A stretch of DNA of 64,000 bases from an uncultured Bdellovibrionales bacterium (GTDB taxonomy: Bacteria > Patescibacteriota > Minisyncoccia > Moranbacterales > UBA1568), in assembly GCA_964624415.1 (NCBI GenBank), contig CAZUWR010000001.1, positions 74,114 through 138,113 on the forward strand, in the 5' to 3' direction. Shown here one piece after another: positions 44,858 through 64,000 of this stretch. Within the stretch, counting starts at the first letter, position 1; the number at the start of each line of letters is the position of its first letter. Under the pieces are notes generated by a model. The model searched no databases. It was not told where the DNA came from and saw only the letters and a program-made list of their open reading frames with translations. The position numbers and the translations under genes were made by a program.

Positions 44858-44997
44858 AGAATTGTAGGTTAGGCTGTTATCTCAACAGTGCTGATAAATA
44901 GTTGCGAATACTGCATTGTATCATATTTCCATAAAAAAAGCAAGAAAAACACTCATTTCTAATAGAATGAGTGTTTTTCTTTGATACGTTCCGTTCC

Positions 44998-46890: not shown

Positions 46891-46891
46891 A

Positions 46892-48754: not shown

Positions 48755-48774
48755 ACCTTTTTTGTTTTACCTGT

Positions 48775-49119: not shown

Positions 49120-49279
49120 TTCTGTGCATCAATACGGAAAAAAGTATCCCCCTCTTTCTCTATTAAACCTCTTTGTCTGGCACTCGTCAAGCTCGGCTGA
49201 CGAATCCTTTCCGCAGGCATTGTATTGAAGGCGCTAGCGATCGCAAAGACACTCTATGTGAGCGAAACGACGACACAAA

Positions 49280-49525
49280 CTAGCTTATTCCATATGCGGA
49301 AGAGAGTGTCCCAAAAACCATCGGTAGGATGATCGCGATCGCTATGAGCGGCAAAACTACGGTCAGTACCGTGATGATAAGCGTCCATTTGAAATATGAG
49401 CGCAGCTTCTCCACGGACACATAAATAGCATCAAGCTTCTTCTCCTGTTCTTCTATTTTCCGCAGCAATTCTTCTTGCATAGGTTTTATATTGAAAAAAT
49501 TATCCCTTCGTATTCGTCGTCCCAA
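49280..49525 (-). CDS. Small membrane protein (hypothetical)
   Basis: 81 aa, coiled-coil plus C-terminal TM helix. Weak support. Confidence 0.3.
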   Translation of the reverse strand: MGRRIRRDNFFNIKPMQEELLRKIEEQEKKLDAIYVSVEKLRSYFKWTLIITVLTVVLPLIAIAIILPMVFGTLSSAYGIS

Positions 49526-49566
49526 TATGATACCAGTATATCACGCCACACCGCTCCCGACCGGAT

Positions 49567-50466
49567 TCAGCTGAGAATATATTTCAACAATGCCATCCTG
49601 ATGAGCAATCCATAGCGGGTTTGCTTGAAATACAGTGCCTTGGGCGAGGCATCGACTTCGGGCAAGATTTCGTCTATACGTGGCAACGGGTGCATAATGA
49701 TAGACTTCACTTTCATCGCCCTCACTGTCTTTCTGTTAATCTGATAACAGCCCTTGTATCGCCGGTATTCCTTATCGCTCTTGAAACGCTCCTGCTGAAT
49801 CCGTGTCTGATAGAGTACATCCACCAAAGAGACCACGCTATTCAAATCCTCCGTCTCCATAAAATCGACGCTGTGCTGCTGCAGATACGTCTTGATATCC
49901 TCCCCTACCCGCAAGGCTTTCGGTGAGACGAAGTATATCTTCACATCCTTGTACTTCCCCAAAAGATACGCGAGCGATCGGATGGTGCGGCCGTGCTTCA
50001 GATCGCCGACAAAAGCGATGTGTATCCCGTTTATTTTCTTCAATTCTTTGTGTATCGTGTACAGATCCAGCAGCGCCTGCGTCGGATGCTGTCCGGATCC
50101 GTCACCCGCATTGATGACCGGTATATCGGATACGAGTGAGGCTCTTTTGGAGGAACCTTCCTCATCATGACGAAGGACGATCACATCGACATAGCCATTG
50201 ACCACCCGGATCGAATCTTCCAGGGTCTCCCCTTTCGAAACGGAAGAGAATTCTTTGGCATTTTCCGTCGTAATAACACTCCCTCCAAGGCGGATCATCG
50301 CCGATTCAAAAGAAAACCGAGTACGAGTACTCGGTTCATAGAAAAGCGTCGCCATGATTTTTCCTTTCAGACACATATCCTTTTTCTTCCCCAAATTATC
50401 CGCCAAAGCGAAAATCTGCCTGATCACCTTTTGGTCGAACTGCTGCGACTCAATGACGTGTTTCAT
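49567..50466 (-). CDS. pyrB: Aspartate carbamoyltransferase catalytic subunit
   Basis: STRTR, HPTQALLD and HPLP motifs. The start is at MKHVIESQQF. Confidence 0.85.
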   Translation of the reverse strand: MKHVIESQQFDQKVIRQIFALADNLGKKKDMCLKGKIMATLFYEPSTRTRFSFESAMIRLGGSVITTENAKEFSSVSKGETLEDSIRVVNGYVDVIVLRHDEEGSSKRASLVSDIPVINAGDGSGQHPTQALLDLYTIHKELKKINGIHIAFVGDLKHGRTIRSLAYLLGKYKDVKIYFVSPKALRVGEDIKTYLQQHSVDFMETEDLNSVVSLVDVLYQTRIQQERFKSDKEYRRYKGCYQINRKTVRAMKVKSIIMHPLPRIDEILPEVDASPKALYFKQTRYGLLIRMALLKYILS

Positions 50467-50582
50467 AAGCGCATAGAGAATATGGATTAGCGAAAGTCTA
50501 CTGTGTACAGAATAAAAGAAAAACCCCACCCTCGCAAGGGATGGATTTTTGCATTGTTTCTCTTAATGCGATTTTAAATATT

Positions 50583-50626
50583 TGAAAAGCGGCAAGGTAA
50601 ATACTACTACCTTGCCGCTTATGTCA
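50583..50626. terminator. Perfect 13 bp stem hairpin AAGCGGCAAGGTA-8 nt-TACCTTGCCGCTT downstream of the gene 50627..51274
   Basis: Seen directly. On the minus strand it is followed by TTTCAAATATTT. Confidence 0.5.
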
Positions 50627-51274
50627 TTAAAAAACGCCGAATGGTTTTTTTGTCATTACCTTAACACTCAAATAGAGAAGATCACACCCTTTGAACCTAT
50701 TCAAATATTTCGGTTCGCTGAGTAAAGCGTTCAATTCATTGGTTATTCCAAGTGAAGCTAAGTATCCTGTCCTTTTGAGTAAGTTATCGAACCTTATAAC
50801 AGTGCCTTCAGAAAAATCGGACATACCATCAGGAAAGTCGCGCTTAAAATGAGGCGACCAGTGATCATAACGCTTATCACACACAATGATGTGCTCATTT
50901 TTAAAATACAGCATATTTTCATTGCGTAGTTCTGCAAGATGCTTTTGAATTTTTTCCATCAAATCCTTTTTTTGAATAACAACACTAATAATTGGATTAA
51001 GGGAAAGCATCTTCTCTTTTTTATCTCTACGAATGGTAGAAAAAGCGGTTATAAAAGAGATGAATTGACTTGGACTGTCAGGCATGACATGGAAACCCAA
51101 TATCTGCAACAATTTTTCATCCATAGCCAGATCATTGAATCTGATTCTAAAAAAAGTATCCGTTGATCCATCCATGCTAGTATCATCTTCAAGAAACATA
51201 ATACTAGCATTATCTCTCATGAAAAATATTTCTTTCACCACTTCATTGGTATCTATTTCTGCTAATTTATTCAC
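50627..51274 (-). CDS. Hypothetical protein (low-GC island)
   Basis: 215 aa, no recognised domain. Confidence 0.45.
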   Translation of the reverse strand: MNKLAEIDTNEVVKEIFFMRDNASIMFLEDDTSMDGSTDTFFRIRFNDLAMDEKLLQILGFHVMPDSPSQFISFITAFSTIRRDKKEKMLSLNPIISVVIQKKDLMEKIQKHLAELRNENMLYFKNEHIIVCDKRYDHWSPHFKRDFPDGMSDFSEGTVIRFDNLLKRTGYLASLGITNELNALLSEPKYLNRFKGCDLLYLSVKVMTKKPFGVF

Positions 51275-51545
51275 AACTGCCTCCTCTGAGCATTCATTTA
51301 TAAATAGCTAACTACGTTAGCTAAAAATATATAAAACACACTTTGTTAAGTAACTACCCCAGAAACCCATTTAGGGCATGACTAATTAAAGCATACTTTA
51401 AATAAAAAGTCAAGTATTTAATACTGCTTTAAACCCCATAGAAAAATAAGACTGGAAAAGCTTTGATAAAAGTTTTATTGCAGAACAGTTTAAACGCTGT
51501 GCTATAATCAGTTCATATATAAGAAGGTCGAACAAATTCATATCT

Positions 51546-52007
51546 ATGAACTACAAACACACGCAAATTGGTTACCTGATGCTGGTCGTCACGCTGGCTG
51601 TACTGGCGCTTTTCGTATGGGTGTATACCACAGCCTCCGCTGAGCCCCCTTCAGCAGATTCAGGACCGAATTTTGCCATCACTACTGTCATGGTATTGAT
51701 TCTGTTTACCCTTGCTTCCTTTTGGTCGCTTCAAATCAGTATCGATGAGAAATATATACACATCAAATTCGGCTATGGCATATATCAGAAAAAGCTTTCA
51801 CTCGATGATATACTCTCCGCCAAAACTGTCCGGAATCACTGGTATTACGGATGGGGAGTAAGAGTATGGCTCTGGCCAAAAATGTGGATCTACAATGTTT
51901 CCGGTTTTGATGCCGTCGAAGTGAAACTAAAAAATGGCAAGGTATACCGAATAGGCACAGACGAACCCAAGAAATTAGAACAGGCAATTCTGCGTTTGAT
52001 TAAATAA
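51546..52007 (+). CDS. Membrane protein with two N-terminal TM helices and a PH-like (DUF304/bPH_2-type) domain
   Basis: 153 aa. Two hydrophobic helices followed by a small beta-rich domain (IHIKFGYGIYQKKLSLDDI...VEVKLKNGKVYRIGTDEPKKL). Confidence 0.45.
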   Translation: MNYKHTQIGYLMLVVTLAVLALFVWVYTTASAEPPSADSGPNFAITTVMVLILFTLASFWSLQISIDEKYIHIKFGYGIYQKKLSLDDILSAKTVRNHWYYGWGVRVWLWPKMWIYNVSGFDAVEVKLKNGKVYRIGTDEPKKLEQAILRLIK

Positions 52008-52107
52008 CTCAGAGGCATTGTACGCGCGGGTGGAGGCGGTGATGAATCGTGGATAAGGAGTGAAAACAAATCGTTGTTTGTGCTTGTGTTTGTATTATTC
52101 AGAAAAA

Positions 52108-52152
52108 ATTTATAGAAAAAAACCGCCTTGCCATTATCGGGGGCGGTTTTTT
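52108..52152. terminator. Bidirectional rho-independent terminator (A-run, GC stem, T-run) between convergent genes
   Basis: aaaaaaACCGCC-ttgccattatcgg-GGGCGGTtttttgtttttt. Confidence 0.7.
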
Positions 52153-52170
52153 GTTTTTTGCGGTGAGATT

Positions 52171-52751
52171 TCACTTGGATATTATCCATGTGGTCTGAAT
52201 GATATAATTTCTATCACCCCATATATCACGTAGCAGTTTTGACTCCTCATCATTCAAGGATGCTCTTTCAACAAAAACATCTGAGACATCGTCTATCCTT
52301 CTAGACTGTATGCATTCAAAGTTGATCTGGTTATCTTTCATCCACGTTTCAACTTCTTTGCGTGATGAATAGAAATGTCCAGAGCGTTGAATTTTTGGAA
52401 TTGAACCGTCAAATGCCAGGTCTATATTTTGACGCCATCCATCCGGATCAGCATCATCTGCTCCCGCATTTTGTAAAACTACAAATTGTTTTGTCACTCT
52501 TGTAATTTCTTTTAAAATAGCGGCTTGTCTTTCCGGATCATTCCATATAAGCACATAGCGCATCATGCCTACATCAACAGTATCATCTTGCAATGGTATG
52601 CATTCTGACAAATCCGCTTCAATCGCCGTGCTGCAGATTTTCCGCACCTTCCGGAGCAGTTACCGCAGCGACCAGCGACTTCACTTACAGGGAGTGTGGT
52701 CTGAATAGCTTGAAAAGCTTCTTGACCTGGCACAACAAATGGCGTTTTCAT
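52171..52751 (-). pseudogene. Class I SAM-dependent methyltransferase, probably frameshifted (two overlapping ORFs in different frames)
   Basis: ORF 52171..52647 encodes a methyltransferase C-terminal half (IPLQDDTVDVGMMRYVLIWNDPE...ITRVTKQFVV). ORF 52569..52751 encodes an N-terminal piece in another frame, overlapping by about 79 nt. No intact motif I (GxGxG) is found in the downstream frame. Confidence 0.4.
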
Positions 52752-53449
52752 GAGATTTTCTCCAATGAGCCAAGTTTACCTAAATACTCGTCGACACCTG
52801 ACGAGGCCTGCCAGAGCTTGCGATATTTCGACAAACTTCTAGTGTGCATAGCATAGCCAAATTCTTCCTTTCCTGTCAAGTCCCTAAACGCCGGGAGGTT
52901 CAAGATGATGCGATTGAAAATTTCCGCCGCATCCCAGTCTTCACGCAATACATCCTGTTTTGTTTTCTTGAGATACGTATAATAATAAAAATGGAGAACC
53001 TCATGAGCTACATGACGACGCACTTCATCGGGCTCACTCTCCGTTTTATACCAAATCTGAAAACCTCGCATATTATCTTCGATAACGCCACACTTGAAAA
53101 TGGACAAGTGCGCCGTGATAGTCTTAGTGCGATAAAAAGAAAGTGGACCAAATATTTTCTCTATCTCATGAAAATATTGTTTGGCTATTTCATTCCATAT
53201 CGCTTGCATAGTAACGAGAGAAGCCTCAATTTCCGCCTTATGCTCACGATAATACTGATTGACATAAGGATTAACTTGCTTCCATAAATCTTCCTCGCTT
53301 AATTTTCGCCACGTTGAAAAGATAGGGTGCTCACTAATGATTCTGTCTTTACCAAAATCATATTTCCCAATCTTATTATTCAGAAAATATACCCCAATTT
53401 CTTTATCGAATTTTTTGCTTATTTTAAATTGGACGGTCGGATACGACAT
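52748..53449 (-). CDS. Putative zinc metallopeptidase-like protein (HExxH)
   Basis: 233 aa with a VAHEVLHFYY (HExxH) motif. No further domain assignment. Confidence 0.45.
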   Translation of the reverse strand: MSYPTVQFKISKKFDKEIGVYFLNNKIGKYDFGKDRIISEHPIFSTWRKLSEEDLWKQVNPYVNQYYREHKAEIEASLVTMQAIWNEIAKQYFHEIEKIFGPLSFYRTKTITAHLSIFKCGVIEDNMRGFQIWYKTESEPDEVRRHVAHEVLHFYYYTYLKKTKQDVLREDWDAAEIFNRIILNLPAFRDLTGKEEFGYAMHTRSLSKYRKLWQASSGVDEYLGKLGSLEKIS

Positions 53450-53582
53450 ATGAGAAGCTTATACTTAAAAACTTTTATTCATTAATGATAAGATTAAACT
53501 ATTCTACTGTCAATAAAAAGGCTTAGAAAAAGCCTCAAAAATACACAGGGTTCGAATCCTACTTAGAGATAACAAAAAACAA

Positions 53583-53608
53583 GGCCTGAATAAGCCTTAT
53601 TTTTTTCA
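53583..53608 (+). terminator. Rho-independent terminator-like hairpin on the + strand with no annotated + gene upstream
   Basis: AAGGC-ctgaataa-GCCTT followed by ATTTTTTT. About 40 nt downstream of a tRNA-like T-arm 12-mer (GGGTTCGAATCC, about 53548-53559). Confidence 0.4.
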
Positions 53609-53744
53609 ATGTTGGGGCTACGGGACGATTTTAGAACTCTTGATTGGCAAAGTTTGTCTGTTCAATTACAGCCGATGCCAACGTTTGAAATGGTTTGAGA
53701 TCACTACTTTTTTATTATACATCCCCCACTCAGAACAAGCCATA

Positions 53745-53785
53745 AAAAAACCGCTTCAATTATCACTAATCGAAGCGGGGTTCAT
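53745..53785 (-). terminator. Rho-independent terminator for the M23/CARDB gene
   Basis: On the minus strand: CCGCTTC-13 nt-GAAGCGG followed by TTTTTTTATGG. Coordinates approximate. Confidence 0.55.
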
Positions 53786-53822
53786 TTTCGAAACAATCAT
53801 TCGATCATCTCTTTCATTCCTG

Positions 53823-55886
53823 TCATTTCACCTTGAAACTTATCGTGGCACAGTTATTGCCTTCATTGGATTCGGCTACCTGACCTTGATAGTCTACACA
53901 ACAGGTATAGGTGCGATTGCCCTTGTCCCCGAGCTTAATATTGTCATTCTGTACATTCTCGGTCTTAGATTGACCGGGACCTATTTCAGACGCTTCGACC
54001 GTATCATTATCGCGGAAGACTCCGCTATTGATATAGTAGGCGATGAGTATGGATCTCGGAGGAGCTCCATTACCAATGTTTTGCACGGTGCAGTAGGGAT
54101 GGACGCGGGTATTTTTCTTGATACTCGTACCTTCTCTGAGCCACATCGCTGAGACAACAAAATCCGGATAAGCCTGTCTGACTTCAAAAGGAATTTCCGT
54201 GCAATTGTTAGTTTCATTCGTCTCATTGGCAAGATTGAGATAATCGGCACATCCCCTGAGGGTATACCAGCCCGGAACGGATGGTGCTTGGATAAGGGAG
54301 ATCATTTCTTCGTATTGATCCCTGTTGTGTGAAAAATTGGATGCTTCCGAACCGTCATCGGCAATCTGTGTCCACTGATCATTGGTACCGGGACCTTTGA
54401 TAGCGTACTGACTGCGAATGGTGGTTGCGGGTAAAACAGCCCCCGTATTGCGTATGGTCATAAATGCACCATACATTTCATTCGTGTACAGAAAAGACTT
54501 GCTTTTAATACCGATGCTCGAAACGACTAGATCCGTATCGGGCATATTGACCACACCCTCTACAACCTCAAAGACAGCTTCCGTCGAACAATTGTTACTC
54601 TCATGTTCTTCGGCATAGTCTCCTCCATTGTTATGGTCATCTTGAGGATGATCCATACAGTACACGATATTGTAGATACCGGGTTCTGTTATCCATTCCC
54701 ACAGATTGGTATTCTTAGTTTCCGTGTGAGTGGCGCCAGGATCAAGATTGCTACAGTGGGTATTGGTGCTGTCGAGTCGTCTCCAAGCACCATTTCCGCT
54801 GTGTGAGTCTTCTTTGTAGCCTTTTGACAGATAGAAATGTCCCGTAATATCTCCATTGCACATGCCTTCGCCGATGTTTTTGGCTTGAGCTGATGTATCG
54901 ATGGATTCATTGAGACCGTACTTGTAGGTTTCGACTCCCCAGGGAGTCTTAAGCCACGTTTTGACGGTAATGAAGTCGGGTAAGGTTTCCGGAATCGGTA
55001 TTTCAGCATCATCGATGTATGCATAACCGAAACCCTTGATGCCATATTCTCCGCTCACACCGTCAGCATGATCAATTGGAAGACTTGCATCTACCGAGAG
55101 ATCCTTCACAGCTACTTTTCCGATAAAATCATCGGGATTGAAATAGCCGCACTCTTTCGGGTCTTTTTGTGGAGAATAGCCGTAAGAAACTTCTCTGTAA
55201 GAGAATAAATGCCAAATTTTTCTGGTATTCATGCACTCATCTTTTGCTGCTGCTTCATACAATACCGGGGCTTGCTTCAGTTCAAGATGGAGATGTTCGG
55301 GCCATAATTTTTCTTTTCCCGTGTTTGAATCGATCACGCCACTCGTGCCGCCAATTACACCCAGTTTCTGACCCTGATAAACCCACATACCAATAGATAA
55401 GCCGGTGTCTATGCTTTTCATGTGAGCATAAAAGCTATACACTGTGCCCCCTGCCGAACATTCGCTCTTATTGACACAATAATGTTTTAGAATAACAAGG
55501 TTTCCAAAACCATGACTTTCAGCAGAACTATGAATAATACGAACTACTTTTCCTACAGCTACTGCCCTAACCTCGTCTGAGCCATTCTGACTTTGATAAT
55601 CCAAGCCCGTATGATAAGGCTGTGCATCCCAACCGTCGCAATAATCCCCAAATCGACATTTCTTCGTTTTACCTATAGCAACATCTCCCTTACAAGCAGC
55701 ACCACATAATGGCTTATAGCCCTCCTCATTTCTGTACACCTCGTCCGTATACTTCCAATCGGTTGGTTTTTGCATAATATCCGTTACGGCATATGCATAA
55801 CTTCCGACCACCAAATACAACATTGCGAATAACATGCTCGCAAAAACTTTCTTTGCTTTGTTCATTTTCTCACTCCAGGTTGTCAA
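53823..55886 (-). CDS. Secreted M23 (LytM) peptidase with two C-terminal CARDB domains
   Basis: Signal anchor. M23 motifs (HTGLDYQS ... HLHLELK). Two CARDB-like repeats, each ending in the E-x-NE-x-NN signature (ANETNETNNCTE and AESNEGNNCA). Confidence 0.8.
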   Translation of the reverse strand: MTTWSEKMNKAKKVFASMLFAMLYLVVGSYAYAVTDIMQKPTDWKYTDEVYRNEEGYKPLCGAACKGDVAIGKTKKCRFGDYCDGWDAQPYHTGLDYQSQNGSDEVRAVAVGKVVRIIHSSAESHGFGNLVILKHYCVNKSECSAGGTVYSFYAHMKSIDTGLSIGMWVYQGQKLGVIGGTSGVIDSNTGKEKLWPEHLHLELKQAPVLYEAAAKDECMNTRKIWHLFSYREVSYGYSPQKDPKECGYFNPDDFIGKVAVKDLSVDASLPIDHADGVSGEYGIKGFGYAYIDDAEIPIPETLPDFITVKTWLKTPWGVETYKYGLNESIDTSAQAKNIGEGMCNGDITGHFYLSKGYKEDSHSGNGAWRRLDSTNTHCSNLDPGATHTETKNTNLWEWITEPGIYNIVYCMDHPQDDHNNGGDYAEEHESNNCSTEAVFEVVEGVVNMPDTDLVVSSIGIKSKSFLYTNEMYGAFMTIRNTGAVLPATTIRSQYAIKGPGTNDQWTQIADDGSEASNFSHNRDQYEEMISLIQAPSVPGWYTLRGCADYLNLANETNETNNCTEIPFEVRQAYPDFVVSAMWLREGTSIKKNTRVHPYCTVQNIGNGAPPRSILIAYYINSGVFRDNDTVEASEIGPGQSKTENVQNDNIKLGDKGNRTYTCCVDYQGQVAESNEGNNCATISFKVK

Positions 55887-55972
55887 CGTGCTTCAGATTC
55901 ACTTGCGTAAATCCACCTTTGATATCTCCATAGTTTCATGAAGGTATCTTTTGGCGGATATACCGCCATGTA

Positions 55973-56515
55973 TTATCGGAAAAAATGGAAGGTTTGAAAA
56001 ATATCATGACCTGCCATTGCTTTTTGAAGTAGCCCCGAGTCCACGAAGAAATATGGGATTATAAAAGGAAACACGGTATCAGAAGAATTATCACTAAAAA
56101 TAAAGCGGTCTCCATTGTGCTGAAGAAGAGTGCGTTTAATCATATGATCCTCTTCCATAAATGGATTCCCTTGTGCTACTTTTATATATAAAATACTCGC
56201 CGCATGCCAATCAAGAATCGTCCAGAGCTTAAAAATGACATCTTCTTCATATGGAAGATTGGTTTTTTCTGGAACTATACTGATAGTAAAAATATCATCC
56301 GGAGAGACTGTTACGGATATATGATTATCATAATTCTCCGTTTTCACTCCATATCCTTCCGGATATTTAAACTCAAAACCATACTCATCATTACGATAAG
56401 TTTTCCAATCCTTCGTCCGCTCATAATGGGAATATGTCTGCCATACTAAAAACACCCCGATAAGAGCAATAATTGCTGTAATGGCTACAATAAGCCTCTT
56501 TGAGATGTTTTGCAT
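55973..56515 (-). CDS. Membrane-anchored hypothetical protein of the Y-G-F-E-F-K-Y-P family
   Basis: N-terminal TM helix followed by WKTYRNDEYGFEFKYPEGYGV. This is the same motif as the pseudogene fragment at 3557-3670. Confidence 0.5.
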   Translation of the reverse strand: MQNISKRLIVAITAIIALIGVFLVWQTYSHYERTKDWKTYRNDEYGFEFKYPEGYGVKTENYDNHISVTVSPDDIFTISIVPEKTNLPYEEDVIFKLWTILDWHAASILYIKVAQGNPFMEEDHMIKRTLLQHNGDRFIFSDNSSDTVFPFIIPYFFVDSGLLQKAMAGHDIFQTFHFFR

Positions 56516-56694
56516 ATAATATGAGTAAGTTTCTTAAAGCTATACTTGAGAATAGCAAATATAAGCATGCATGTCAAAACATTTTGAATGCTGAAAAATG
56601 CCGGGATCTCATGTGGTAACAAAAGATGTAAGGCTTAATATAAGTTATCTTTCTCTTTATTCAAAAGCAATTGTGTACTTTAATTAGCAAAGAC

Positions 56695-56723
56695 TTGACT
56701 ACTGTTAATACATGCCGTATACT
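56695..56723 (+). promoter_or_regulatory. Sigma-70 consensus-like promoter TTGACT-N17-TATACT for the XRE repressor gene
   Basis: Seen directly. Implies transcription starts after the ORF-track start at 56712 and supports the ATG at 56751. Confidence 0.5.
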
Positions 56724-56750
56724 GAAAGTGTGCTTAATGAATCAAAAATT

Positions 56751-57113
56751 ATGAAAACAAGAGACTTAGCGTCAGCAGTAAGAAACCTTCGAATAAAGTC
56801 TGGTATATCCCCTGCTAAATTGGCGGAGCGATCAGAACTTTCTTCGGCGTACATTTCCAAATTGGAAAGCGGTCAGTACAAAACAATCACATTGACTACT
56901 TCAAGAGCTCTTGCGGTAGGACTAGGACTCACTCTCAAGGATTTTCTTGAGAAGATTGGGTTTTTAGAAAAACAGGATACATATAATCCGTTAAACCAAA
57001 ATTCCGCCAACCAGTTGATCGCAAATGCCCTTCGGGGAAATGGCTACACCGACCAGCAAGCACGGGACATTGTGAATTATGCCAAATATATCAAATCCAC
57101 AGACAAGCGATAA
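56751..57113 (+). CDS. XRE-family HTH transcriptional regulator (ImmR/cI-like repressor)
   Basis: Cro/C1-type HTH (LRIKSGISPAKLAERSELSSAYISKLESGQ), about 120 aa. Paired with the ImmA-like protease downstream. Confidence 0.7.
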   Translation: MKTRDLASAVRNLRIKSGISPAKLAERSELSSAYISKLESGQYKTITLTTSRALAVGLGLTLKDFLEKIGFLEKQDTYNPLNQNSANQLIANALRGNGYTDQQARDIVNYAKYIKSTDKR

Positions 57114-57798
57114 CGACCTTGATCATGAAGATGTTTCTCTTGAGGTTCTTGAATTTCAACAGAAAAAAGGCTACGTAGCACTACTCGAACAACTTACGCT
57201 ACACTTTCAAAAACTTGTTTATGATATTTTCCAAAAATACCCTAGCGAAATAACATTCCCTATTGATACAATGCCAATGGAGCATTTTTTGCTCGGGTTT
57301 GAAATCGAGTATCTATCCATAGAGGAACTTATAGAAAATGATCTCATCCCGCACTTTTGCAATCCCTTTGATCTAAAGGGATCTCATTCAAGCCCTCATT
57401 CCATAGAGGGTTTTTGGTTTTCCGATGATAAAACAAATAAAGTTTATATTTTCATAAACACATCATCCAACGCCAAGCGTCAGATGTTTACTAAAATACA
57501 CGAGCTTTTTCACTTTTGCCAAAGTCTTGATCCAGCCTTTAATGACTTTCTCACTGAAATCATCAATGAATCAACACTCCCGAAAAAATACATAAGAAAT
57601 CTTATAGAAAGAAGTGCAAACAAGGCCACGGCCATGTACTTGATACCCGAAACACATTTGCAACAAGCGTATAAAGAGACTCAAGACATTGCGGAATTGG
57701 CGCTATTGTATGGTGTTTCGCAAGATACTCTCAGAATACGACTGGAAGAGTGCAATTTAATCCGTAATCAAAATGATATTTTTGATGTTCCATTTTAA
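57079..57798 (+). CDS. ImmA/IrrE-family zinc metallopeptidase (anti-repressor protease, DUF955/M78)
   Basis: HEXXH motif HELFHF in the context IFINTSSNAKRQMFTKIHELFHFCQ. Overlaps the XRE gene by 35 nt. This is the typical ImmR-ImmA pairing of mobile elements. Confidence 0.7.
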   Translation: MPNISNPQTSDNDLDHEDVSLEVLEFQQKKGYVALLEQLTLHFQKLVYDIFQKYPSEITFPIDTMPMEHFLLGFEIEYLSIEELIENDLIPHFCNPFDLKGSHSSPHSIEGFWFSDDKTNKVYIFINTSSNAKRQMFTKIHELFHFCQSLDPAFNDFLTEIINESTLPKKYIRNLIERSANKATAMYLIPETHLQQAYKETQDIAELALLYGVSQDTLRIRLEECNLIRNQNDIFDVPF

Positions 57799-57916
57799 AA
57801 AACACAAAAATCCTGCGCTTCAACACAGGACTTTTGGCTAAACCAACGCGAGTAAACACATTGATCAGGGCAATTTCAATGTAACATATCCGAAATCGTA
57901 AAGCAAGGATATTGGC

Positions 57917-57950
57917 TCGCGCATGGATAGACGCGAGCTTTTATGTATTC
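57917..57950. other. GC-rich hairpin GCTCGCG-N10-CGCGAGC upstream of rep: candidate nick site or double-strand origin, or a terminator
   Basis: Perfect 7 bp inverted repeat followed by TTTTATG, about 160 nt upstream of the Rep_trans start codon. Coordinates approximate. Confidence 0.3.
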
Positions 57951-58106
57951 ACCCGACATATCCACAAAAGGCCTCGCAAAGGCTCTCAATCTAGGCAAAG
58001 ATGAAGTTTTTGAAGCTAGCTTCAACTTGCTTACATTTTTTGAAACATTGCACAGAATTGACGAGCGCTTGCAAACGGAGAAAAACGGAAAGGAGGCTAA
58101 CTCTGT

Positions 58107-59258
58107 ATGATTGATAGCATTGTCCTTTCCATTCAAGAAAACGCTTACACGCTAACGGACGCGCGTTGTTTCGGGAATAAACACATCAAACAAATGGGAA
58201 GGCGTTTTTCAAATACAACTTCTTTCAGCGACATGGCACCGCAACTCAAAAAGCAAGGTGTCTATTTTCCGCATGTTGAGTTTCCTCAAAGAACAAGTGG
58301 GAGGGATAAAAACAAATCATCATCCCTTCAAATACAAGTATCGCTTCCAAAGCTTCTTTATGGTACTAATCTTTTTGAAATAGACGGCTCAGAACTTCCA
58401 GCTCTATGCGCAAAACTTTCTCAATGCTTGCAAAGACTCAATATCATCATCACGGAGGAAGCAGTTGCCAACGCTACTGTCAAAAGAGTTGATTTTTGCA
58501 AATCTATCACACTACCACCTTATCTTGGCACAGCCAAACAAGTGATCCATAAGCTTCAAAAATTCAACTACAAGGCCGGATCAGACTTCACGCGCAAGGA
58601 ATTTCGAGAAGGCTCAAAAGAATGCTTTATAAAGTATCACAGTAGCACGCAAGGTTATGTCGTGTATGACAAGGCCTCTGAATTACTCGCAAATGGCTTT
58701 ACAGAAATAGAAAAAACTATTGCACGCCACCTTCAACAAGGGAATGGCTACGGCCGAGTGATACGCTTTGAGCTTTCGCTTCAAAAAAAGCAATCCATGG
58801 ACGCTTTGCTTCGGCGACACATTGGAAAGCAAAAAAACTTTACCTTGAAAGACTTGCTTTCAAGTAAAATCGCCGTCAAAGATATTCTTTTGGAAGCTTT
58901 TGATCGTATTTACTCCCCCGCTCACACCCTCTTGATCACGCTCGCGGAAATGGACGAAAATGAAATCTCTCATCATCTAGAGAGCCTCGATCTTTCTTTT
59001 GCAAAAAAGGCGACGCTTGCGTATCTAGCGAATAAGACTGCCAAATATGGTTTACGGGCAACATTGGTCGAAATGAAAACCGAAATGTCGGCAAGCAACT
59101 ATAATCGATACAAGAATGATCTCAAAGAGATGTTTCAGAACTTGGACACACTGGGCTTGGAAAAGCCAAACCTTATAAAGTTTTTACGGGATGAGCATGT
59201 TGCATTCCAACTTCTCACACCGAACAAAAGCTTGTGCGGTATTGTCAATCATTGTTAA
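58107..59258 (+). CDS. Rep_trans-family rolling-circle replication initiator (pT181 RepC / CTXphi RstA / Tn916 Orf20-like)
   Basis: Matches the family landmarks: MIDSIVLSI (iDwlafTf), KRVDFCKSI (RlDlAiD), YHSSTQGYVVYDKASE (GsrsS..iRiYDKaaE), RVIRFELSLQ (WiRvElqlr). Strong SD AAGGAGG upstream. Confidence 0.65.
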   Translation: MIDSIVLSIQENAYTLTDARCFGNKHIKQMGRRFSNTTSFSDMAPQLKKQGVYFPHVEFPQRTSGRDKNKSSSLQIQVSLPKLLYGTNLFEIDGSELPALCAKLSQCLQRLNIIITEEAVANATVKRVDFCKSITLPPYLGTAKQVIHKLQKFNYKAGSDFTRKEFREGSKECFIKYHSSTQGYVVYDKASELLANGFTEIEKTIARHLQQGNGYGRVIRFELSLQKKQSMDALLRRHIGKQKNFTLKDLLSSKIAVKDILLEAFDRIYSPAHTLLITLAEMDENEISHHLESLDLSFAKKATLAYLANKTAKYGLRATLVEMKTEMSASNYNRYKNDLKEMFQNLDTLGLEKPNLIKFLRDEHVAFQLLTPNKSLCGIVNHC

Positions 59259-59318
59259 TCGAGATATGATGATATTGTATTACTCAAATATACCTCCCAA
59301 ATATGAACACCCATCATT

Positions 59319-59519
59319 ATGAAAAATAGCACAAGGAAACAAGGAGAAGAAAAAGAATTTTACCTCGTCGAAGAGGTTGCCGAAAAATTGAGGGTATCAA
59401 AAATGACCGTGTATCGATATATCAAGGCAAGTAAGCTCAATGCCTACAAAATCGGCAAAGAGTTTCGTATCAGAAAAAGCGACCTCGACAGTTTCCTTTC
59501 ACAAGTAAGTACACAATAA
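59319..59519 (+). CDS. Excisionase/MerR-like HTH_17 DNA-binding protein (Xis-like)
   Basis: 66 aa. LVEEVAEKLRVSKMTVYRYIKASKLNAYKIGKEFRIRKSDLDSFL matches the HTH_17 pattern. Confidence 0.6.
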   Translation: MKNSTRKQGEEKEFYLVEEVAEKLRVSKMTVYRYIKASKLNAYKIGKEFRIRKSDLDSFLSQVSTQ

Positions 59520-59523
59520 TTTT

Positions 59524-61647
59524 ATGCTCAATATACAAACCGAGAAAAACAAGATATTCTCCCCTATCCGCAATAAGTGGCTTATAAATACACCCGAAGA
59601 AGAAGTGCGTCAAAACTATATTTGCAAGCTCGTGAACGAATACGGGTATAGTTTGGATCAGATTGATGAAGAGCTACAAGTAAACAATAGTCAAAGAGGA
59701 CAAGGAAAATCAAGAGCGGATATTGTCGTGTGGAAATCAAAAGAAGAAAAGCTCAATAAAAGCAATGCCTTCATAGTGATTGAGTGCAAATCAGACAACG
59801 TCACTATACACCCCGAAGACTACTATCAAGGCAACAATTATGCTTCTTGGGCAAGAGCAAAGTTTTTTGTTACGCATAACAACGCCGAAACAAAATACTT
59901 CCAAATGCTTGAAGACAAACTTCCTGTCGACTTAAACGAGATCGTAAATATCCCAACCGCAAAAGAGGTCAATGACGTAAAGAAGCTTCAAGAACTTGTC
60001 GAGGAAACAAAGGTCTTCACCAGAGACGAATTTTCAAAATTGCTTTTCAAATGCCATAATATCATCCGCAACAACGACAAACTTTCTCCCGAAGGCGCTT
60101 TTGACGAAATAAGCAAAATTTTGTTTATCAAAATACGTTACGAAAGACAGCAAGGAAAAAAAGTCTTCTCGTCTTTCCGTTTCGACGAGCTCAAGAAGTC
60201 TTACGAGGAAACCGCTTCAAAAACATCAAAACCTTTTTATCAGGTACTTTTCGACAAGACGAAAGAAGATTTTGTGGAAGATGAACTTTTTGAACTCAAT
60301 GAGGAAATCAAGATCCGTGAAAATAGCTTTACACAGATAGTCAAAGAGTTGGAACGATACAATCTTTCCGATACGGGAGATGATGTCAAAGGTATCGCAT
60401 TTGAACAATTTCTCGGCAAGACATTTCGAGGTGAGCTCGGGCAATTCTTCACCCCGCGCACGATAGTCGATTTTATGGTGGATATTCTCGATCCCAAAGA
60501 AGGCGACCTTATTTGCGACCCGTGTTGCGGTTCGGGCGGTTTCCTTATCAAAGCTTTCGATTATGTGCGCGAGAAAATCGAAGCGGATATTTTGAGTCAA
60601 AAAGAGGCCGTTAAAAACAAGTATTTTGATGAGAATTACCAAAAGCTTGATGACGAAGGAAAAGAAAAGATCGATAAAATTGTTGAAAAAGAGTTTAAAA
60701 AGCTTAATAAAGAACTCGACAATTTCTCGGAAGGATCAAGACTCTACAAGCTTTCTCATGATTGTATCTACGGAGCAGATGCCAATCCTCGCATGGCGCG
60801 CACTAGCAAAATGAACATGATCATGCACGGAGACGGCCACGGCGGGGTGCATCATAATGACGGACTGCTCGACATTGGCGGTATCTTTGAAAATCGTTTT
60901 GACATTATCTTCACCAATCCCCCTTTCGGATCGCGAGTGAACAAGGGTCAAAAAATAACGGAAAATGACAACAAGTATGCGGGTAAAAAAGACTATATCG
61001 AAAAGAAATTCGGTAGAGCAGGCTTGGATGCTATCCATAACCTCGAAAACAATATCGGAAAAAATTTGATTGATACCTACGAAACAGGAAACTTTTCGAC
61101 GCTCACGGAAGTGCTTTTTATGGAGCGCTATTTGAGAATACTCAAGCAGGGCGGAAAAATGGCGGTTGTTTTGCCCGAAGGCTTCCTCAACAATCCGAAT
61201 TTGCAAAAGGTGCGCGAATACTTCGAAGGACGTGCAAAAATAGAACTCATTGTTTCCATTCCTCAAGATGTCTTTATTGCAAGCGGTGCCACAGTAAAGC
61301 CGAGCCTTGTTTTTCTCAAGAAGTTTACCGAAACGGAAAGTACGGAATACAAAGCACTTAAAGAGAAAATAACCCAATCCGTACAAACTCAATACGAAAC
61401 CCAAAAAAGCACACTTGAGAAAGAACTCAAAGAAGCGAAAGGCGAAACCAAGAAACTCAAAAAGAAAGAACTGGACGCTTTAAACATCACTATTGAAAAT
61501 CAGATCAAACAAGAAATCAAAACCGCTTTTGACTATCAAATCCCGATAGCCGAAGTCGAAAAAGCGGGCATCACCACTACGGGAGAAAAATGTGAAAACG
61601 AGCTCGTCGAAGTGGCGAAAGAATATCACCGATACAAAAGCAAATAA
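59524..61647 (+). CDS. hsdM: Type I-like N6-adenine DNA methyltransferase (HsdM-type) with an N-terminal HSDR_N PD-(D/E)xK nuclease-like domain
   Basis: 707 aa. N-terminal EEEVRQNYICKLVNEYGY...RADIVVWKS...FIVIECKSDN fits the HSDR_N/Mrr-like D...E.K core. Then the HsdM N-domain and the N6_Mtase catalytic domain with motif I (DPCCGSGGFL) and motif IV NPPF (IIFTNPPFGS). Confidence 0.85.
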   Translation: MLNIQTEKNKIFSPIRNKWLINTPEEEVRQNYICKLVNEYGYSLDQIDEELQVNNSQRGQGKSRADIVVWKSKEEKLNKSNAFIVIECKSDNVTIHPEDYYQGNNYASWARAKFFVTHNNAETKYFQMLEDKLPVDLNEIVNIPTAKEVNDVKKLQELVEETKVFTRDEFSKLLFKCHNIIRNNDKLSPEGAFDEISKILFIKIRYERQQGKKVFSSFRFDELKKSYEETASKTSKPFYQVLFDKTKEDFVEDELFELNEEIKIRENSFTQIVKELERYNLSDTGDDVKGIAFEQFLGKTFRGELGQFFTPRTIVDFMVDILDPKEGDLICDPCCGSGGFLIKAFDYVREKIEADILSQKEAVKNKYFDENYQKLDDEGKEKIDKIVEKEFKKLNKELDNFSEGSRLYKLSHDCIYGADANPRMARTSKMNMIMHGDGHGGVHHNDGLLDIGGIFENRFDIIFTNPPFGSRVNKGQKITENDNKYAGKKDYIEKKFGRAGLDAIHNLENNIGKNLIDTYETGNFSTLTEVLFMERYLRILKQGGKMAVVLPEGFLNNPNLQKVREYFEGRAKIELIVSIPQDVFIASGATVKPSLVFLKKFTETESTEYKALKEKITQSVQTQYETQKSTLEKELKEAKGETKKLKKKELDALNITIENQIKQEIKTAFDYQIPIAEVEKAGITTTGEKCENELVEVAKEYHRYKSK

Positions 61648-61648
61648 T

Positions 61649-63013
61649 ATGACAAATCTACTCGCTACAAATGAATATCGTTTCTTGCAACTTGTGCATT
61701 TTCGCAATTGGATCAACTGGGATGTCAAAAGTTATGCGATCAACACGTTGCAATCCGAATACACATTCGTCAAATTATCCGAAGTGTTGCAAGAGCAAAC
61801 CCAAAAAGTGAAACTCAAAGACTTTCCCGACACGGAGTTTGGCATTTTAGGCGTCAACAACAAAATCGGCATTTTTGACGCTTACCTTGAAAAGGGCGCA
61901 AAAATAAACCAGCCCTACAAGAAAATGCAAACCAACTGGATCGCCTACAATCCCTACCGTGTCAATGTAGGCTCTATCGGAATAAAAACGGAGAATGAAC
62001 ACTACGAATACATAAGCAATGCCTATGTCGTTTTCAGTTGCGATGAAAGCAAACTCGATACGGAGTTCTTTTTCAGACTTTTCAAAACCGCCACCTTCAA
62101 CAATCTTGTCAAAAAATCAACCAAAGGTTCGGTTCGTCAAAACCTTTCTTTCGAATTGTTAAGCAATATCTCAATCCCACTCCCACCACTTCATATCCAG
62201 AAAGCGCTTGTGAAAGCTTATGACGCCAAACTCGCAGAGGCCGAAGCTTTGAACAACGAAGCCGAAACAACAAACAAGCAGATTAAGAGCTATCTCATGC
62301 AAGAACTCGGCATCACGATTGAAGAAAAGCAAAAAAAGAAAGGCTTGCAAATGATACGGTTTAAGGATTTGGATCGTTGGGGTGTTGACTTTGCAATTTT
62401 TACGAGCATTCTCAATAAACTCTACAAAAATACTACATTTCCGATAGAAAGACTGGGTTCACGAATAGAATACCTACAATATGGTTTGTCCGAAAAAGCA
62501 AATAGAGATGCATCAGGGGTACCAATGATCAGAATGAATAATATACAAGATAGTGACATAAACTACCAAGATTTGAAGTATATAGAAAAATGTTCAGAAA
62601 GTTACTTGTTGCAAAAAGGAGATCTCCTTTTTAATCGAACAAACAGTAAAGAGCTTGTAGGAAAAACTGCTATTTTCAACAACAATGTTAGCGCTACATT
62701 TGCCTCTTACTTGATTAGAGTCAGGTTTGAAGAAAAAACAACAGATGTTCGTTATATCAACTTTTTAATGAATTCAATAATAGGAAGGGTTCAAATAAAC
62801 ACGATCAGTAGACAAGTTTTAGGACAAGCAAATATCAATAGTCGTGAGTTGCAAGATTTTACATTTCCATTTCCACCTCTCGAAATCCAAAACAAGATAG
62901 CCGACCAAATAGACGCATGGAAGAAAGAAATCAAAACCAAGAAAGAACAAGCCGAAGCAATCAAACAACAAGCGAAAGAAGTATTTGAAAAAAGCTTGTT
63001 TGAAACAAAATAA
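61649..63013 (+). CDS. hsdS: Type I restriction-modification specificity subunit (two target-recognition domains)
   Basis: Two TRDs separated by conserved HsdS central and C-terminal coiled-coil repeats (LPPLHIQKALVKAYDAKLAEAEAL ... FPPLEIQNKIADQIDAWKKEIKTKKEQAEAIKQQAKE). The start ATG is 2 bp after the hsdM stop. Confidence 0.85.
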   Translation: MTNLLATNEYRFLQLVHFRNWINWDVKSYAINTLQSEYTFVKLSEVLQEQTQKVKLKDFPDTEFGILGVNNKIGIFDAYLEKGAKINQPYKKMQTNWIAYNPYRVNVGSIGIKTENEHYEYISNAYVVFSCDESKLDTEFFFRLFKTATFNNLVKKSTKGSVRQNLSFELLSNISIPLPPLHIQKALVKAYDAKLAEAEALNNEAETTNKQIKSYLMQELGITIEEKQKKKGLQMIRFKDLDRWGVDFAIFTSILNKLYKNTTFPIERLGSRIEYLQYGLSEKANRDASGVPMIRMNNIQDSDINYQDLKYIEKCSESYLLQKGDLLFNRTNSKELVGKTAIFNNNVSATFASYLIRVRFEEKTTDVRYINFLMNSIIGRVQINTISRQVLGQANINSRELQDFTFPFPPLEIQNKIADQIDAWKKEIKTKKEQAEAIKQQAKEVFEKSLFETK

Positions 63014-63016
63014 CCT

Positions 63017-64000
63017 ATGAAAAAAGCGGTCGCCTACTTTCGCGTATCGTCGAAAGAACAAAAAGTCGAAGGGTACTCAATCCCCGCTCAAAAGCGGTTG
63101 ATTTTGGATTTCGCCAAGCGTCAAGGCATCAAAATCGTGCAAGAATTTGAAGACGACGAAACCGCCAAAAAATCGGGACGAAAAGGCTTTACTGAAATGA
63201 TCCAATACCTCAAAGATCACAAAGATGTCGATGCTATCGTGGTTGAAAAAACCGATCGTCTCTATCGCAACTTCAAAGACTATGTGATTGTAGATGATCT
63301 GAGTCTTACGGTATACTTGGTCAAAGAAAACGAGGTTATCGGTAAAAATGCCTCATCGCATCAAAAATTCATTCACGGGATCAAGGTGCTCATGGCCAAA
63401 AACTATGTCGACAATCTCAGTGAGGAATCTCGAAAAGGACTTGATCAAAAAGCGAGTGGCGGGGTGTATCCCAGCTCAAGCATCCCTCTCGGATACAAAT
63501 TCCGTAAGCAAGACGGCAAAACCATTCCCGTGATCGACGAGGTGCATCAGGATATACCCGTGCGTATGTTCAATCTCTATGCTACGGGACGGTATTCCCT
63601 GCTCTCACTCCTCAATCAACTCAAAGAAGAGGGCTTATTGCGATCAGAGCGTTTTGCCACGCATCCGAGAATCAAAACCATCACAAAGAGCTCGGCTCAA
63701 AGAATACTTCGGAATCCTTTCTATTACGGCGATTTTATGTGGCGGGAAAAACTGCATAAGGGAACGCATGATCCGATCATTACAAAGGCTTTATGGGATA
63801 AAGTGCAAACCGCTCTCAATCGTTTTGAGAATAAAGAACTGCTCTCAAAATATAATTCACTCCCCTTTGCTTTCAAAGGATTGTTTGTATGCGGTGAGTG
63901 CGGGCGTGCCATAACAGCGGAAAAGAAAGTGAAAAAATCGGGACTGGAATATACTTACTATCATTGCACGAAATTCAATACCAACTGCACGCAAAAAGCC
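63017..64000 (+). CDS. Large serine recombinase (N-terminal resolvase domain, recombinase domain, zinc-ribbon), 3' end outside the window
   Basis: AVAYFRVSSKEQ catalytic Ser motif. Recombinase-domain pattern. CGECGR...YYHC zinc ribbon beginning near the window end. Open to position 64000. Confidence 0.85.
   Translation, partial: MKKAVAYFRVSSKEQKVEGYSIPAQKRLILDFAKRQGIKIVQEFEDDETAKKSGRKGFTEMIQYLKDHKDVDAIVVEKTDRLYRNFKDYVIVDDLSLTVYLVKENEVIGKNASSHQKFIHGIKVLMAKNYVDNLSEESRKGLDQKASGGVYPSSSIPLGYKFRKQDGKTIPVIDEVHQDIPVRMFNLYATGRYSLLSLLNQLKEEGLLRSERFATHPRIKTITKSSAQRILRNPFYYGDFMWREKLHKGTHDPIITKALWDKVQTALNRFENKELLSKYNSLPFAFKGLFVCGECGRAITAEKKVKKSGLEYTYYHCTKFNTNCTQKA

Follow-up and report, generated by a model that had tools for sequence, protein, structure and literature searches.

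The right-hand part of a 64,000-nucleotide window (positions 74,114 to 138,113 of contig CAZUWR010000001.1, assembly GCA_964624415.1; the window is the whole stretch of DNA analysed) carries a row of plus-strand genes encoding an XRE-family repressor, an ImmA/IrrE-type metalloprotease, a protein of 55 amino acids (aa), a rolling-circle-type replication initiator (Rep), an HTH_17 excisionase-family protein, a DNA methyltransferase with a specificity (S) subunit and a large serine recombinase (LSR). An earlier note on this DNA had taken these genes to be a horizontally acquired, integrated mobile element with an XRE/ImmA-type switch and restriction-modification (R-M) cargo. Searches of Pfam, PHROG, PADLOC and NCBIfam recovered every gene that it listed, and relatives that assemble as circles share the backbone, so this core reading stands. 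Our results indicate, with a probability that we put at roughly 80%, that the region is an integrated, plasmid-like, site-specific mobile element of ~10.9 kb that lies at the 3′ end of a tRNA-Gln gene, extending from window position 53,618 to extension coordinate 64,513 (extension coordinates continue the numbering past the window). It consists of the backbone, the R-M cargo and two leftward cargo genes. The host is a Patescibacteria (Candidate Phyla Radiation, CPR) chromosome of the Minisyncoccia/Paceibacteria-like kind; its copper ATPase is closest to proteins of Minisyncoccia, Ryanbacteria, Kaiserbacteria and Pacebacteria.

The LSR gene begins at 63,017, runs off the window at 64,000 and continues to 64,540 (plus strand). 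Its product matches Resolvase (4.8e-22), Recombinase (1.9e-14) and Zn_ribbon_recom (1.7e-8), contains a coiled-coil-like stretch at 359-444 and falls in phrog_95 (integrase, 2.4e-74). Residues R9-V10-S11-S12-Q15 are invariant in 20 sequences. The protein therefore has the catalytic domain, Recombinase domain, zinc ribbon and coiled coil of the large serine integrases (S-Int), bearing out the earlier proposal of such a recombinase at the right end. Using an exact-protein look-up, we recovered a Logan contig (L001; sample SRR12487045; 8,036 bp) that is 100% identical to window positions 56,528-64,000 (7,473 bp) and adds 563 bp on the right. Look-ups of the same kind returned no match for the S subunit in a 473-aa form with a GTG start, for the 180-aa and 680-aa proteins encoded to the left of the XRE gene, or for the NCBI form of Rep (P0121). 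As the earlier note had anticipated, extension in this direction revealed both the end of the LSR gene and the right attachment site (attR), which lies 513 bp beyond the window at a tRNA-Gln gene.

The LSR gene and the tRNA gene overlap. In the integrated state the LSR is 507 aa long and its translation ends in ...SDWLGKRDSNPRS (longer stretch ...RASCSDWLGKRDSNPRS), and its final 12 codons lie opposite the 3′ end of tRNA-Gln: TGG is CCA read in antisense, and GAT TCG AAC C, encoding DSNP, corresponds in the same way to the T-loop. At attR, ...GACTGGTTGGGG runs into AAGAGGGATTCGAACC, and the core copy GTTGGGG occupies extension coordinates 64,507-64,513. Since the tRNA gene is cut off, ARAGORN called no tRNA in the window or in L001. 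The 59-nt fragment was initially read as a long-arm tRNA (Leu, Ser or Tyr), an assignment discarded once ARAGORN identified tRNA-Gln(CTG) on two metagenome contigs (L094 and L096) that share the same 59 nt together with the rest of the gene. We infer that the LSR inserted the element into the last bases of this gene.

To the left, the 7 nt found at the tRNA-Gln 3′ end at attR recur in the window as GTTGGGG at 53,611..53,617 (plus strand), the core of the left attachment site (attL). This core is the only sequence that attL and attR share, and in relatives the shared stretch is 3-7 nt, as expected of the short attachment sites of S-Int. Flanking direct repeats, which the earlier note had proposed as a mark of the ends, did not materialize beyond these 7 nt: blastn-short comparison of the right end with the whole window found no long direct repeats, and no copy of the 18-nt tRNA end was found in the window with up to three mismatches allowed. 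Because long repeats are not expected for a serine integrase, we instead traced the left boundary through the P′ arm, the right arm of the phage-type attachment site (attP). A 20-mer from a circular relative (L003) has a single match in the window, at 53,618-53,637 with one mismatch, where none is expected by chance. This match marks the P′ arm within attL, CTACGGGACGATTTTAGAACTCTTGATTGG (53,618..53,650, plus strand), directly after the core. The P′ motif is also conserved to the left of the backbone in L002, L004, L006, L007, L009, L011 and L013, and in L002, L004, L007, L009, L011 and L013 it is preceded by 3-7 nt of the relative's own tRNA 3′ end, giving element sizes of 5.4-10.8 kb.

Immediately outside the core, at 53,574..53,605 on the minus strand, is a hairpin with a T-run (terminator-like on both strands). 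As it lies directly left of the core and matches the downstream flank of a minus-strand tRNA, this hairpin looks like the native terminator of the tRNA-Gln gene, which the insertion would have cut off from its tRNA and left on the host flank of attL. About 50 bp further left we noted a T-loop-like fragment, GGGTTCGAATCC (53,548-53,559, plus strand), at which no tRNA was called; the fragment could derive from another tRNA or from a former attachment site. The earlier note had the element start at ~56,600. That position instead falls in a divergent promoter region inside the element, which begins at ~53.6 kb and is thus ~3 kb longer on the left, with two more genes included.

Joining the two ends in silico yields an in-frame LSR of 525 aa ending in ...DWLGLRDDFRTLDWQSLSVQLQPMPTFEMV. 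The joined tail, LGLRDDFRTLDWQSLSVQLQPMP, matches the tail of a homologue (P0002) that ends in ...DWRGLRDDFRTLDWHSLSLQLQPMPAL, and the reconstructed tail resembles those of the LSRs on two circular contigs. One of these, L003, is a Logan contig of 8,462 bp with a 30-nt end overlap, giving a circle of 8,432 bp. It encodes an LSR 69% identical to that of the window, and its gene order is 55-aa protein, Rep, HTH_17, methyltransferase, S subunit, LSR, a 94-aa open reading frame (ORF), XRE and ImmA. The second, L012, has a 55-nt end overlap and a length of 11,194 bp. In both circles the LSR gene continues past ...GAT TGG CGG GG into CTACGGGACGA(C/T)TTTAGAAC...TTGG, and the LSR is followed directly by P′ and then by XRE. 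We infer that in the excised form of the element the P′ arm would likewise encode the C-terminal tail of the LSR.

Both parental sites can likewise be predicted. The reconstructed attP reads ...GACTGGTTGGGGCTACGGGACGATTTTAGAAC..., with the predicted junction CGAAAGGGCTTCTTGTTCCGACTGGTTGGGG|CTACGGGACGATTTTAGAACTCTTGATTGG, and the reconstructed bacterial site (attB) reads ...TTTTTTTCAATGTTGGGGAAGAGGGATTCGAACC..., with the predicted junction AAGCCTTATTTTTTTCAATGTTGGGG|AAGAGGGATTCGAACCCCCGATC. We place the probable crossover inside GTTGGGG, which comprises the last acceptor-stem bases, the discriminator and the first C beyond. One integrated relative (L002) departs from this layout. Its LSR does not abut a tRNA; the LSR end (11,490) joins a diverged P′-like arm, and a second P′-like arm lies at 12,319, after a Metallophos gene and 0.8 kb further on. 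This arrangement suggests tandem or nested insertions at an att-like site.

We compared related contigs in search of an unoccupied site, as the earlier note had recommended, with a divided outcome: an unoccupied tRNA-Gln gene exists in a distant relative (L096), but no isogenic empty allele was found. L096 shares a gene with window positions 48.2-49.2 kb (66% nucleotide identity) and has an identical tRNA-Gln 3′ part; its neighbors are a kinase-like gene to one side and FtsX, FtsE and PrfB to the other, and no recombinase is present. Three Joint Genome Institute (JGI) metagenome contigs considered as further empty sites (L093, L094 and L097) proved not to be empty. They carry distant LSR genes (~36-46% identity over short segments) at the same tRNA-Gln, and in these the LSR ORF supplies no CCA. 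tRNA-Gln thus appears to be a recurrent target of several sub-lineages.

Several observations weigh against our interpretation. The exact predicted attB junction had no match in the JGI metagenomes, no isogenic empty site was seen, and L096, the nearest thing to one, is a distant relative with only partial synteny. No circular form or attP junction of the exact element was seen either, so its mobility is deduced from relatives whose LSRs are 58-73% identical. Composition is equivocal. The GC content is 0.407 across 53,611-64,513, compared to 0.465 in window positions 1-49,500, in agreement with the earlier statement that the region is lower in GC than the upstream housekeeping genes. However, the GC content at 50.6-53.6 kb, outside the element, is 0.381, lower than that of the element itself and the most AT-rich part of the window; the boundary is therefore not marked by composition alone. 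Finally, window positions 53,983-56,527 are present on neither L001 nor L130, a second Logan contig from sample SRR12487045, both of which match the flanks without mismatch. This interval contains no repeated 31-mers, and its loss from the Logan contigs could reflect a surface protein that varies between strains or locally reduced coverage. Consequently, what ties it to the backbone is the assembly of the window itself, together with where the P′ arm lies.

The gap bears on whether the element consists only of the block from ~56.6 kb to the recombinase, with the genes at 53.8-56.5 kb belonging to the host or to an unrelated older insertion. L001 does start at 56,528, just left of the XRE gene, and no related element has homologues of the two leftward genes. 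However, L130 corresponds to window positions 42,748-53,982 and thus runs from host sequence across attL at 53,611, just as L001 crosses attR. The start of L001 is therefore an assembly break rather than a junction, and we rejected it as the element boundary. Nothing resembling an attachment site occurs near 56.6 kb, while the sole P′ arm in the window, at 53,618, is preceded by the tRNA core and, immediately outside it, by the candidate tRNA terminator. In addition, the circular L012 carries leftward cargo in the same slot. We consider this shorter element very improbable.

The missing empty site and circular form, and the identity of the region in two assemblies, would also fit a fixed, immobile remnant in which the recombinase and its neighbors are kept for R-M or another host function. 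This we regard as unlikely: no backbone ORF is disrupted, the two att halves are complete and, when recombined in silico, give an in-frame attP like those of the circular relatives, and the LSR retains its catalytic residues and Rep its invariant tyrosine. The element between attL and attR remains our preferred interpretation. Beside it, at 50,600-53,610 and just outside attL, are four short genes with no confident family match, and the distant relative L096 has wholly different genes between its cupin gene and tRNA-Gln. The 50,600-53,610 interval may be an older island or a variable hotspot beside the tRNA.

We characterized the Rep protein (383 aa; 58,107..59,258, plus strand) by profile and fold matching. 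The earlier note had called it Rep_trans, a label that survives at the level of fold, as Rep matched the Rep_trans fold of the RepSTK1 and RepDE crystal structures, but not at the level of Pfam family. By sequence it belongs to Phage_CRI/G2P (PF05144; 30 bits against a gathering cut-off of 21.7) and to phrog_702 ("replication protein"), and among the 34 members of its family, 18 match Phage_CRI and none matches Rep_trans (PF02486) at E <= 0.1. Tyr187, in a YDK motif, and Tyr53 are invariant in the 34 sequences and are candidate active-site tyrosines. Its score above the gathering cut-off and the conserved candidate tyrosine place Rep in the Phage_CRI/G2P family.

The MOB_T relaxases found in Tn916- and ICESt3-type elements and in streptococcal integrative mobilizable elements with serine integrases belong to the Rep_trans family. 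Given the fold match, our element could also be an integrative mobilizable element in which Rep, instead of initiating replication, acts as a MOB_T-type relaxase, nicking an oriT so that the conjugation machinery of a helper can transfer the DNA. This seems unlikely, if somewhat worth keeping in mind. Rep matches the G2P initiator family and a PHROG annotated as a replication protein, neither the element nor its relatives contain a coupling protein or type IV secretion system gene, and the relatives assemble as free circles, which fits autonomous replication. Roles in replication and mobilization are, however, not mutually exclusive.

Membership of Rep in a filamentous-phage family raises a different explanation: the region could be a prophage that has become defective, or an inovirus-like or PICI-like phage satellite, and depend for its spread on the particles of a helper virus. 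The layout of repressor, protease, Xis, Rep and integrase is satellite-like, and the wider LSR clade occurs on viral contigs in IMG/VR. Against this, we detected no capsid, coat, Zot-like morphogenesis, terminase or packaging genes among the element proteins using Pfam and PHROGs, the complete circular relatives of 8.4 and 11.2 kb carry only backbone and cargo, and the Rep family has no relative in IMG/VR. A phage-derived element of this kind is therefore improbable, and we favor a plasmid-like one.

Downstream of Rep is the gene for the HTH_17 excisionase-family protein (66 aa; 59,319..59,519, plus strand; HTH_17 3.8e-15; TIGR01764, 56.6 bits against a cut-off of 28.8). After the LSR it is the most conserved backbone protein, with 58-72% identity in relatives from the Patescibacteria group. 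It is retained whatever the cargo, lying directly before the LSR in two elements that lack R-M genes (L004 and L009). Because it persists across cargo types, we count it among the backbone genes and regard it as the leading candidate directionality factor rather than an R-M controller. The latter role, which a weak MAD1 match had brought into consideration, was rejected as its main function, since the gene is kept beside unrelated R-M types and in the R-M-less L004 and L009.

The gene after HTH_17 encodes a 707-aa fusion of an HSDR_N_2 (PD-(D/E)xK-like) domain and a gamma-class N6-adenine methyltransferase (59,524..61,647, plus strand; HSDR_N_2 1.4e-23, N6_Mtase 5.9e-34). It matches the PADLOC profile MTase_I PDLC03018 over its full length with 1087 bits, and both the D...ECK motif of the N-terminal HSDR_N_2 domain and the NPPF motif can be read directly. 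The S subunit that follows (454 aa; 61,649..63,013, plus strand) has two target-recognition domains (Methylase_S 2.7e-18, in two stretches; PADLOC Specificity_I 2e-133, 443 bits). PADLOC and Pfam thus recognize the HsdM and HsdS subunits of a type I R-M system, and no gene for an HsdR helicase-nuclease is present between 53.6 and 64.5 kb. A D...ECK motif and a methyltransferase in one polypeptide, with a separate S gene, fit the type IIB (BcgI-like) architecture, and the fusion may possibly be a BcgI-like enzyme with a built-in nuclease. The proteins encoded at 59,319-63,013 (HTH_17, methylase and S) also gave sub-threshold matches to NCBIfam MAD2 (288 bits against a cut-off of 720), MAD5 (48 against 400) and MAD1 (41.7 against 80). 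None reaches the equivalog level and no other mad genes are present, so we do not assign the cargo to MADS.

Comparison with relatives revealed that the position between HTH_17 and the LSR is a cargo slot. The relatives share the backbone of XRE, ImmA, 55-aa protein, Rep, HTH_17 and LSR (34-72% identity for the proteins other than the LSR), while the contents of the slot vary. It holds a fused methylase and S subunit in the window, L003 and L008; a C5 methylase with an NgoFVII-family endonuclease in L002; a C5 methylase, R.HinP1I and Vsr in L007; a C5 methylase with an unknown protein in L006 and L012; and a type III Mod/Res pair in L011. In L004 and L009 it is empty.

At the other end of the backbone is the regulatory module. 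The XRE-family helix-turn-helix (HTH) repressor, which is ImmR-like (120 aa; 56,751..57,113, plus strand), matches HTH_3 (1.5e-9), HTH_31 (6.5e-9) and the PHROG annotation transcriptional repressor; its start, which lies downstream of the promoter, was taken from the L001 gene call. The adjoining ImmA/IrrE-type metalloprotease (57,079..57,798, plus strand) matches Peptidase_M78 (2.6e-9), phrog_87 (metallo-protease, 3.9e-13) and PADLOC capP (2.3e-11), and a HELFH motif can be read in its sequence. The two genes overlap by 35 nt. An XRE HTH gene adjoining the gene for an M78 protease with an HExxH motif is the arrangement of an ImmR/ImmA-type switch. ImmR/ImmA of the Bacillus subtilis element ICEBs1, CapH/CapP and DdrO/IrrE all resemble our pair in having an XRE repressor gene followed by an overlapping HExxH M78 gene, and in ICEBs1, as here, the pair is located at the regulatory end of an integrative element. 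Unlike in ICEBs1, the pair is co-oriented with the Rep, Xis and integrase genes rather than divergent from xis, and the integrase is a serine rather than a tyrosine recombinase.

A promoter scan, which reports consensus matches only, delineated a divergent promoter region at 56,549..56,723. A rightward promoter toward XRE matches the consensus on the plus strand (56,695..56,723, TTGACT-17-TATACT), and a leftward promoter toward a 180-aa gene does so on the minus strand (56,577..56,549, TTGACA-17-TATTCT). An imperfect 25-nt repeat (72% identity) occurs at 56,572-56,596 and 56,703-56,727, its copies covering the leftward -35 and the spacer and -10 of the rightward XRE promoter. These copies are possible XRE operators. 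The leftward cargo consists of the gene for the 180-aa protein (55,973..56,515, minus strand; identified in the ORF list), which has a hydrophobic N-terminal segment and no significant match in family profile searches, and of a gene for a predicted secreted protein of 680-687 aa (53,823..55,886, minus strand) with Peptidase_M23 (9.2e-12) and two CARDB domains (1.1e-18; Pfam). The latter lies between attL and the XRE gene. In the circular L012 the same slot contains a leftward 7TM histidine kinase and two unknown proteins, indicating that leftward cargo is part of the design of the family.

The remaining backbone gene encodes the 55-aa protein (57,943..58,110, plus strand). It has no match in Pfam or PHROGs but is kept next to Rep in L002, L003, L004 and L007 (41-61% identity), and its stop codon runs into the start of Rep. 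The 145 nt that separate the ImmA gene from the 55-aa and Rep genes contain a 14-pair hairpin (57,805-57,836), and L003 has a GC-rich hairpin at the same place. The window hairpin could be a terminator that insulates the regulatory operon or a double-strand origin nicked by Rep.

A life cycle that accommodates these genes can be proposed. The LSR would recombine attP with the last bases of the tRNA acceptor stem, leaving the tRNA intact; the tRNA would gain an element-supplied CCA and 3′ flank, including an antisense terminator in the C-terminal codons of the integrase. The XRE repressor would silence the element until the ImmA-type protease inactivates it, whereupon the HTH_17 protein would direct the LSR to excise the element and Rep would replicate the excised circle by a rolling-circle mechanism. 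The R-M module may benefit or addict the host. Responsiveness to the SOS response, replication after excision, control of direction by HTH_17 and restriction activity are all predictions from sequence.

To see how widely this arrangement occurs, we examined the LSR clade. The LSR has thousands of homologues, the closest in Patescibacteria. The 507-aa form in the window is missing from the homologue list (best match 73% identity), although Rep and the copper ATPase were matched at 100% from NCBI; in the source record the LSR gene may carry another annotation or be listed as a pseudogene. Scanning a single genome for each GTDB species yielded 80 LSR loci, and the counts that follow use these together with L002 and L003 (82 loci), with the window and L001 excluded. 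The 80 loci come from Patescibacteria, Alphaproteobacteria (Bradyrhizobium, Rhodopseudomonas and Mesorhizobium), Acidobacteriota, Omnitrophota, Planctomycetota and others. At 63 of the 82, the end of the LSR ORF encloses the 3′ end of a minus-strand tRNA; the other 19 include nine cut by contig ends and the two circles, L003 and L012. The 63 tRNAs represent 13 tRNA species, for Asn (25 loci), Gln (16), Asp (9), Met (3), Glu (3), His (2), Ser (2), and Arg, Pro and Ile (one each). The LSR C-terminus is conserved as ...SDW(R/L)G.RD(S/L)NPRP and, because of the overlap, is partly tRNA antisense. On IMG/VR viral contigs that carry the clade, a minus-strand tRNA was found at or just past the end of the LSR match in 6 of 29 loci. 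Within the Patescibacteria subgroup, integrated relatives with a callable tRNA use tRNA-Asp with the core TGGCGGGG, while this element uses tRNA-Gln with the core TGGTTGGGG.

The antisense strand of the LSR 3′ end also carries a terminator-like feature. Read in antisense, the conserved YKKPF(E/D)..RA codons give a stem with TTTTTTG after it, just 3′ of the tRNA (L001 7,962..7,939, minus strand; extension coordinates 64,466-64,489). Here the hairpin covers the LSR codons KKPFEKILERA and adjoins the 3′ side of the tRNA-Gln gene. L004, L005, L008, L010 and L013 share this feature, and the LSR 3′ antisense region is more stable than shuffled sequences (z < -2) at 33 of 64 loci. As integration leaves the tRNA's own terminator at attL, this antisense hairpin looks like a replacement supplied by the element.

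These observations lead us to a broader proposal, which we hold only tentatively and consider rather doubtful as a whole: that there is a phylum-spanning LSR clade specialized on tRNA 3′ bases, with attP in its own 3′ coding end. If so, integration would swap the LSR tail, from ~30 aa encoded by the element to ~12 aa from tRNA antisense, which could allow the protein to sense the integrated versus the free state. The YKKPF..RA codons would be dual-coded as an antisense terminator replacing the one taken from the tRNA, and altering a handful of bases in the core, from CGGGG to TTGGGG, would shift the element's target from tRNA-Asp to tRNA-Gln. In Patescibacteria, the clade would drive small rolling-circle replicons, mainly with R-M cargo. 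A literature search, itself incomplete in coverage, found no description of Patescibacteria mobile elements of this kind, of the element family or of its att anatomy. Small integrating rolling-circle replicons with R-M systems, driven in Patescibacteria by a widespread LSR clade that acts at tRNA 3′ ends, apparently constitute an undescribed family, to which this element belongs.

Large serine integrases are the main tools for large DNA insertion, and their natural targets are thought to be mostly protein-coding genes. The window and its relatives provide a concrete att-site anatomy for a broad clade at tRNA 3′ ends, which could supply integrases with landing sites already present in almost any bacterium. 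For Patescibacteria/CPR, in which very few mobile elements and no genetic tools are known, a vector could plausibly be built from a small, integrating and self-replicating element whose attP, attB and Rep are defined, and the element suggests one route by which R-M systems may move among these genomes. For annotation, the 507-aa LSR tail and the tRNA overlap are best treated as consequences of integration, not as errors. Should the functional assignments prove wrong, what remains is a genomic island with correctly drawn limits.

Among known systems, the earlier note had likened the element to Tn5397 or SCC. This likeness does not hold: CcrB scores 86.7 bits and CcrC 68.8 bits, each against a cut-off of 900, the target is a tRNA 3′ end, an uncommon one among large serine integrases, and Pfam and PHROGs detect no conjugation genes in the element. 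In its domains (Resolvase, Recombinase, zinc ribbon, coiled coil and an RVS motif), its very short crossover core and a small separate protein that probably sets directionality, the LSR resembles the large serine integrases of phiC31, Bxb1, A118, SPbeta (SprA) and SCC (CcrAB/CcrC), as well as XisF and TndX. Scores against NCBIfam CcrA/B/C and XisF are far below the cut-offs, and here, unlike in these integrases, attP lies inside the integrase's own 3′ coding end, such that integration alters the protein tail. To our knowledge, none of them targets a tRNA.

The small size, the Int/Xis/Rep module and the tRNA 3′ end that is kept whole recall pSAM2-type actinomycete elements and "Islander"-type islands; pSAM2 measures 10.9 kb (PMC2440964). 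Our element differs from these in having an unrelated recombinase, a duplication of 3-7 nt of tRNA rather than tens of bases, no transfer genes and a Rep of a different family. Serine integrases beside tRNA targets have appeared before as counts or single predictions. The TIGER study lists t(m)RNA targets for 14 of 297 serine integrases and describes this usage as previously unreported and needing proof (Mageeney et al., 2020; PMC7192596), and for Paracoccus phage vB_PamS_Pami6 there is a single prediction at tRNA-Met (PMC6536676). In Mesorhizobium, integrative mobilizable elements beside tRNA-Asn and a few elements with serine integrases are both mentioned, although the passage in question does not link the two (PMC8627217). 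In the sections concerned, we found no description of att anatomy, ORF-tRNA overlap or clade breadth for TIGER-type S-Int islands.

The phiRSM-type filamentous phages of Ralstonia share with our element a G2P-family rolling-circle Rep and a serine recombinase at a tRNA gene. Their recombinase reportedly enters a tRNA-Ser gene. The phiRSM integrase, cited as site-specific in PMC7192596, is small and resolvase-like, without the Recombinase and zinc-ribbon domains. In addition, phiRSM carries coat and morphogenesis genes that are absent from our element. A parallel to the altered integrase tail is found in the mycobacteriophages BPs and Brujita, in which attP lies in coding sequence and the proteins encoded by the integrated and free forms differ in their C-termini. 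In these phages, which encode tyrosine integrases, the altered tail carries a degradation tag and its role has been demonstrated. Our element likewise has attP within coding sequence, but its integrase is a serine recombinase, and the role that we suggest for its tail change is a prediction.

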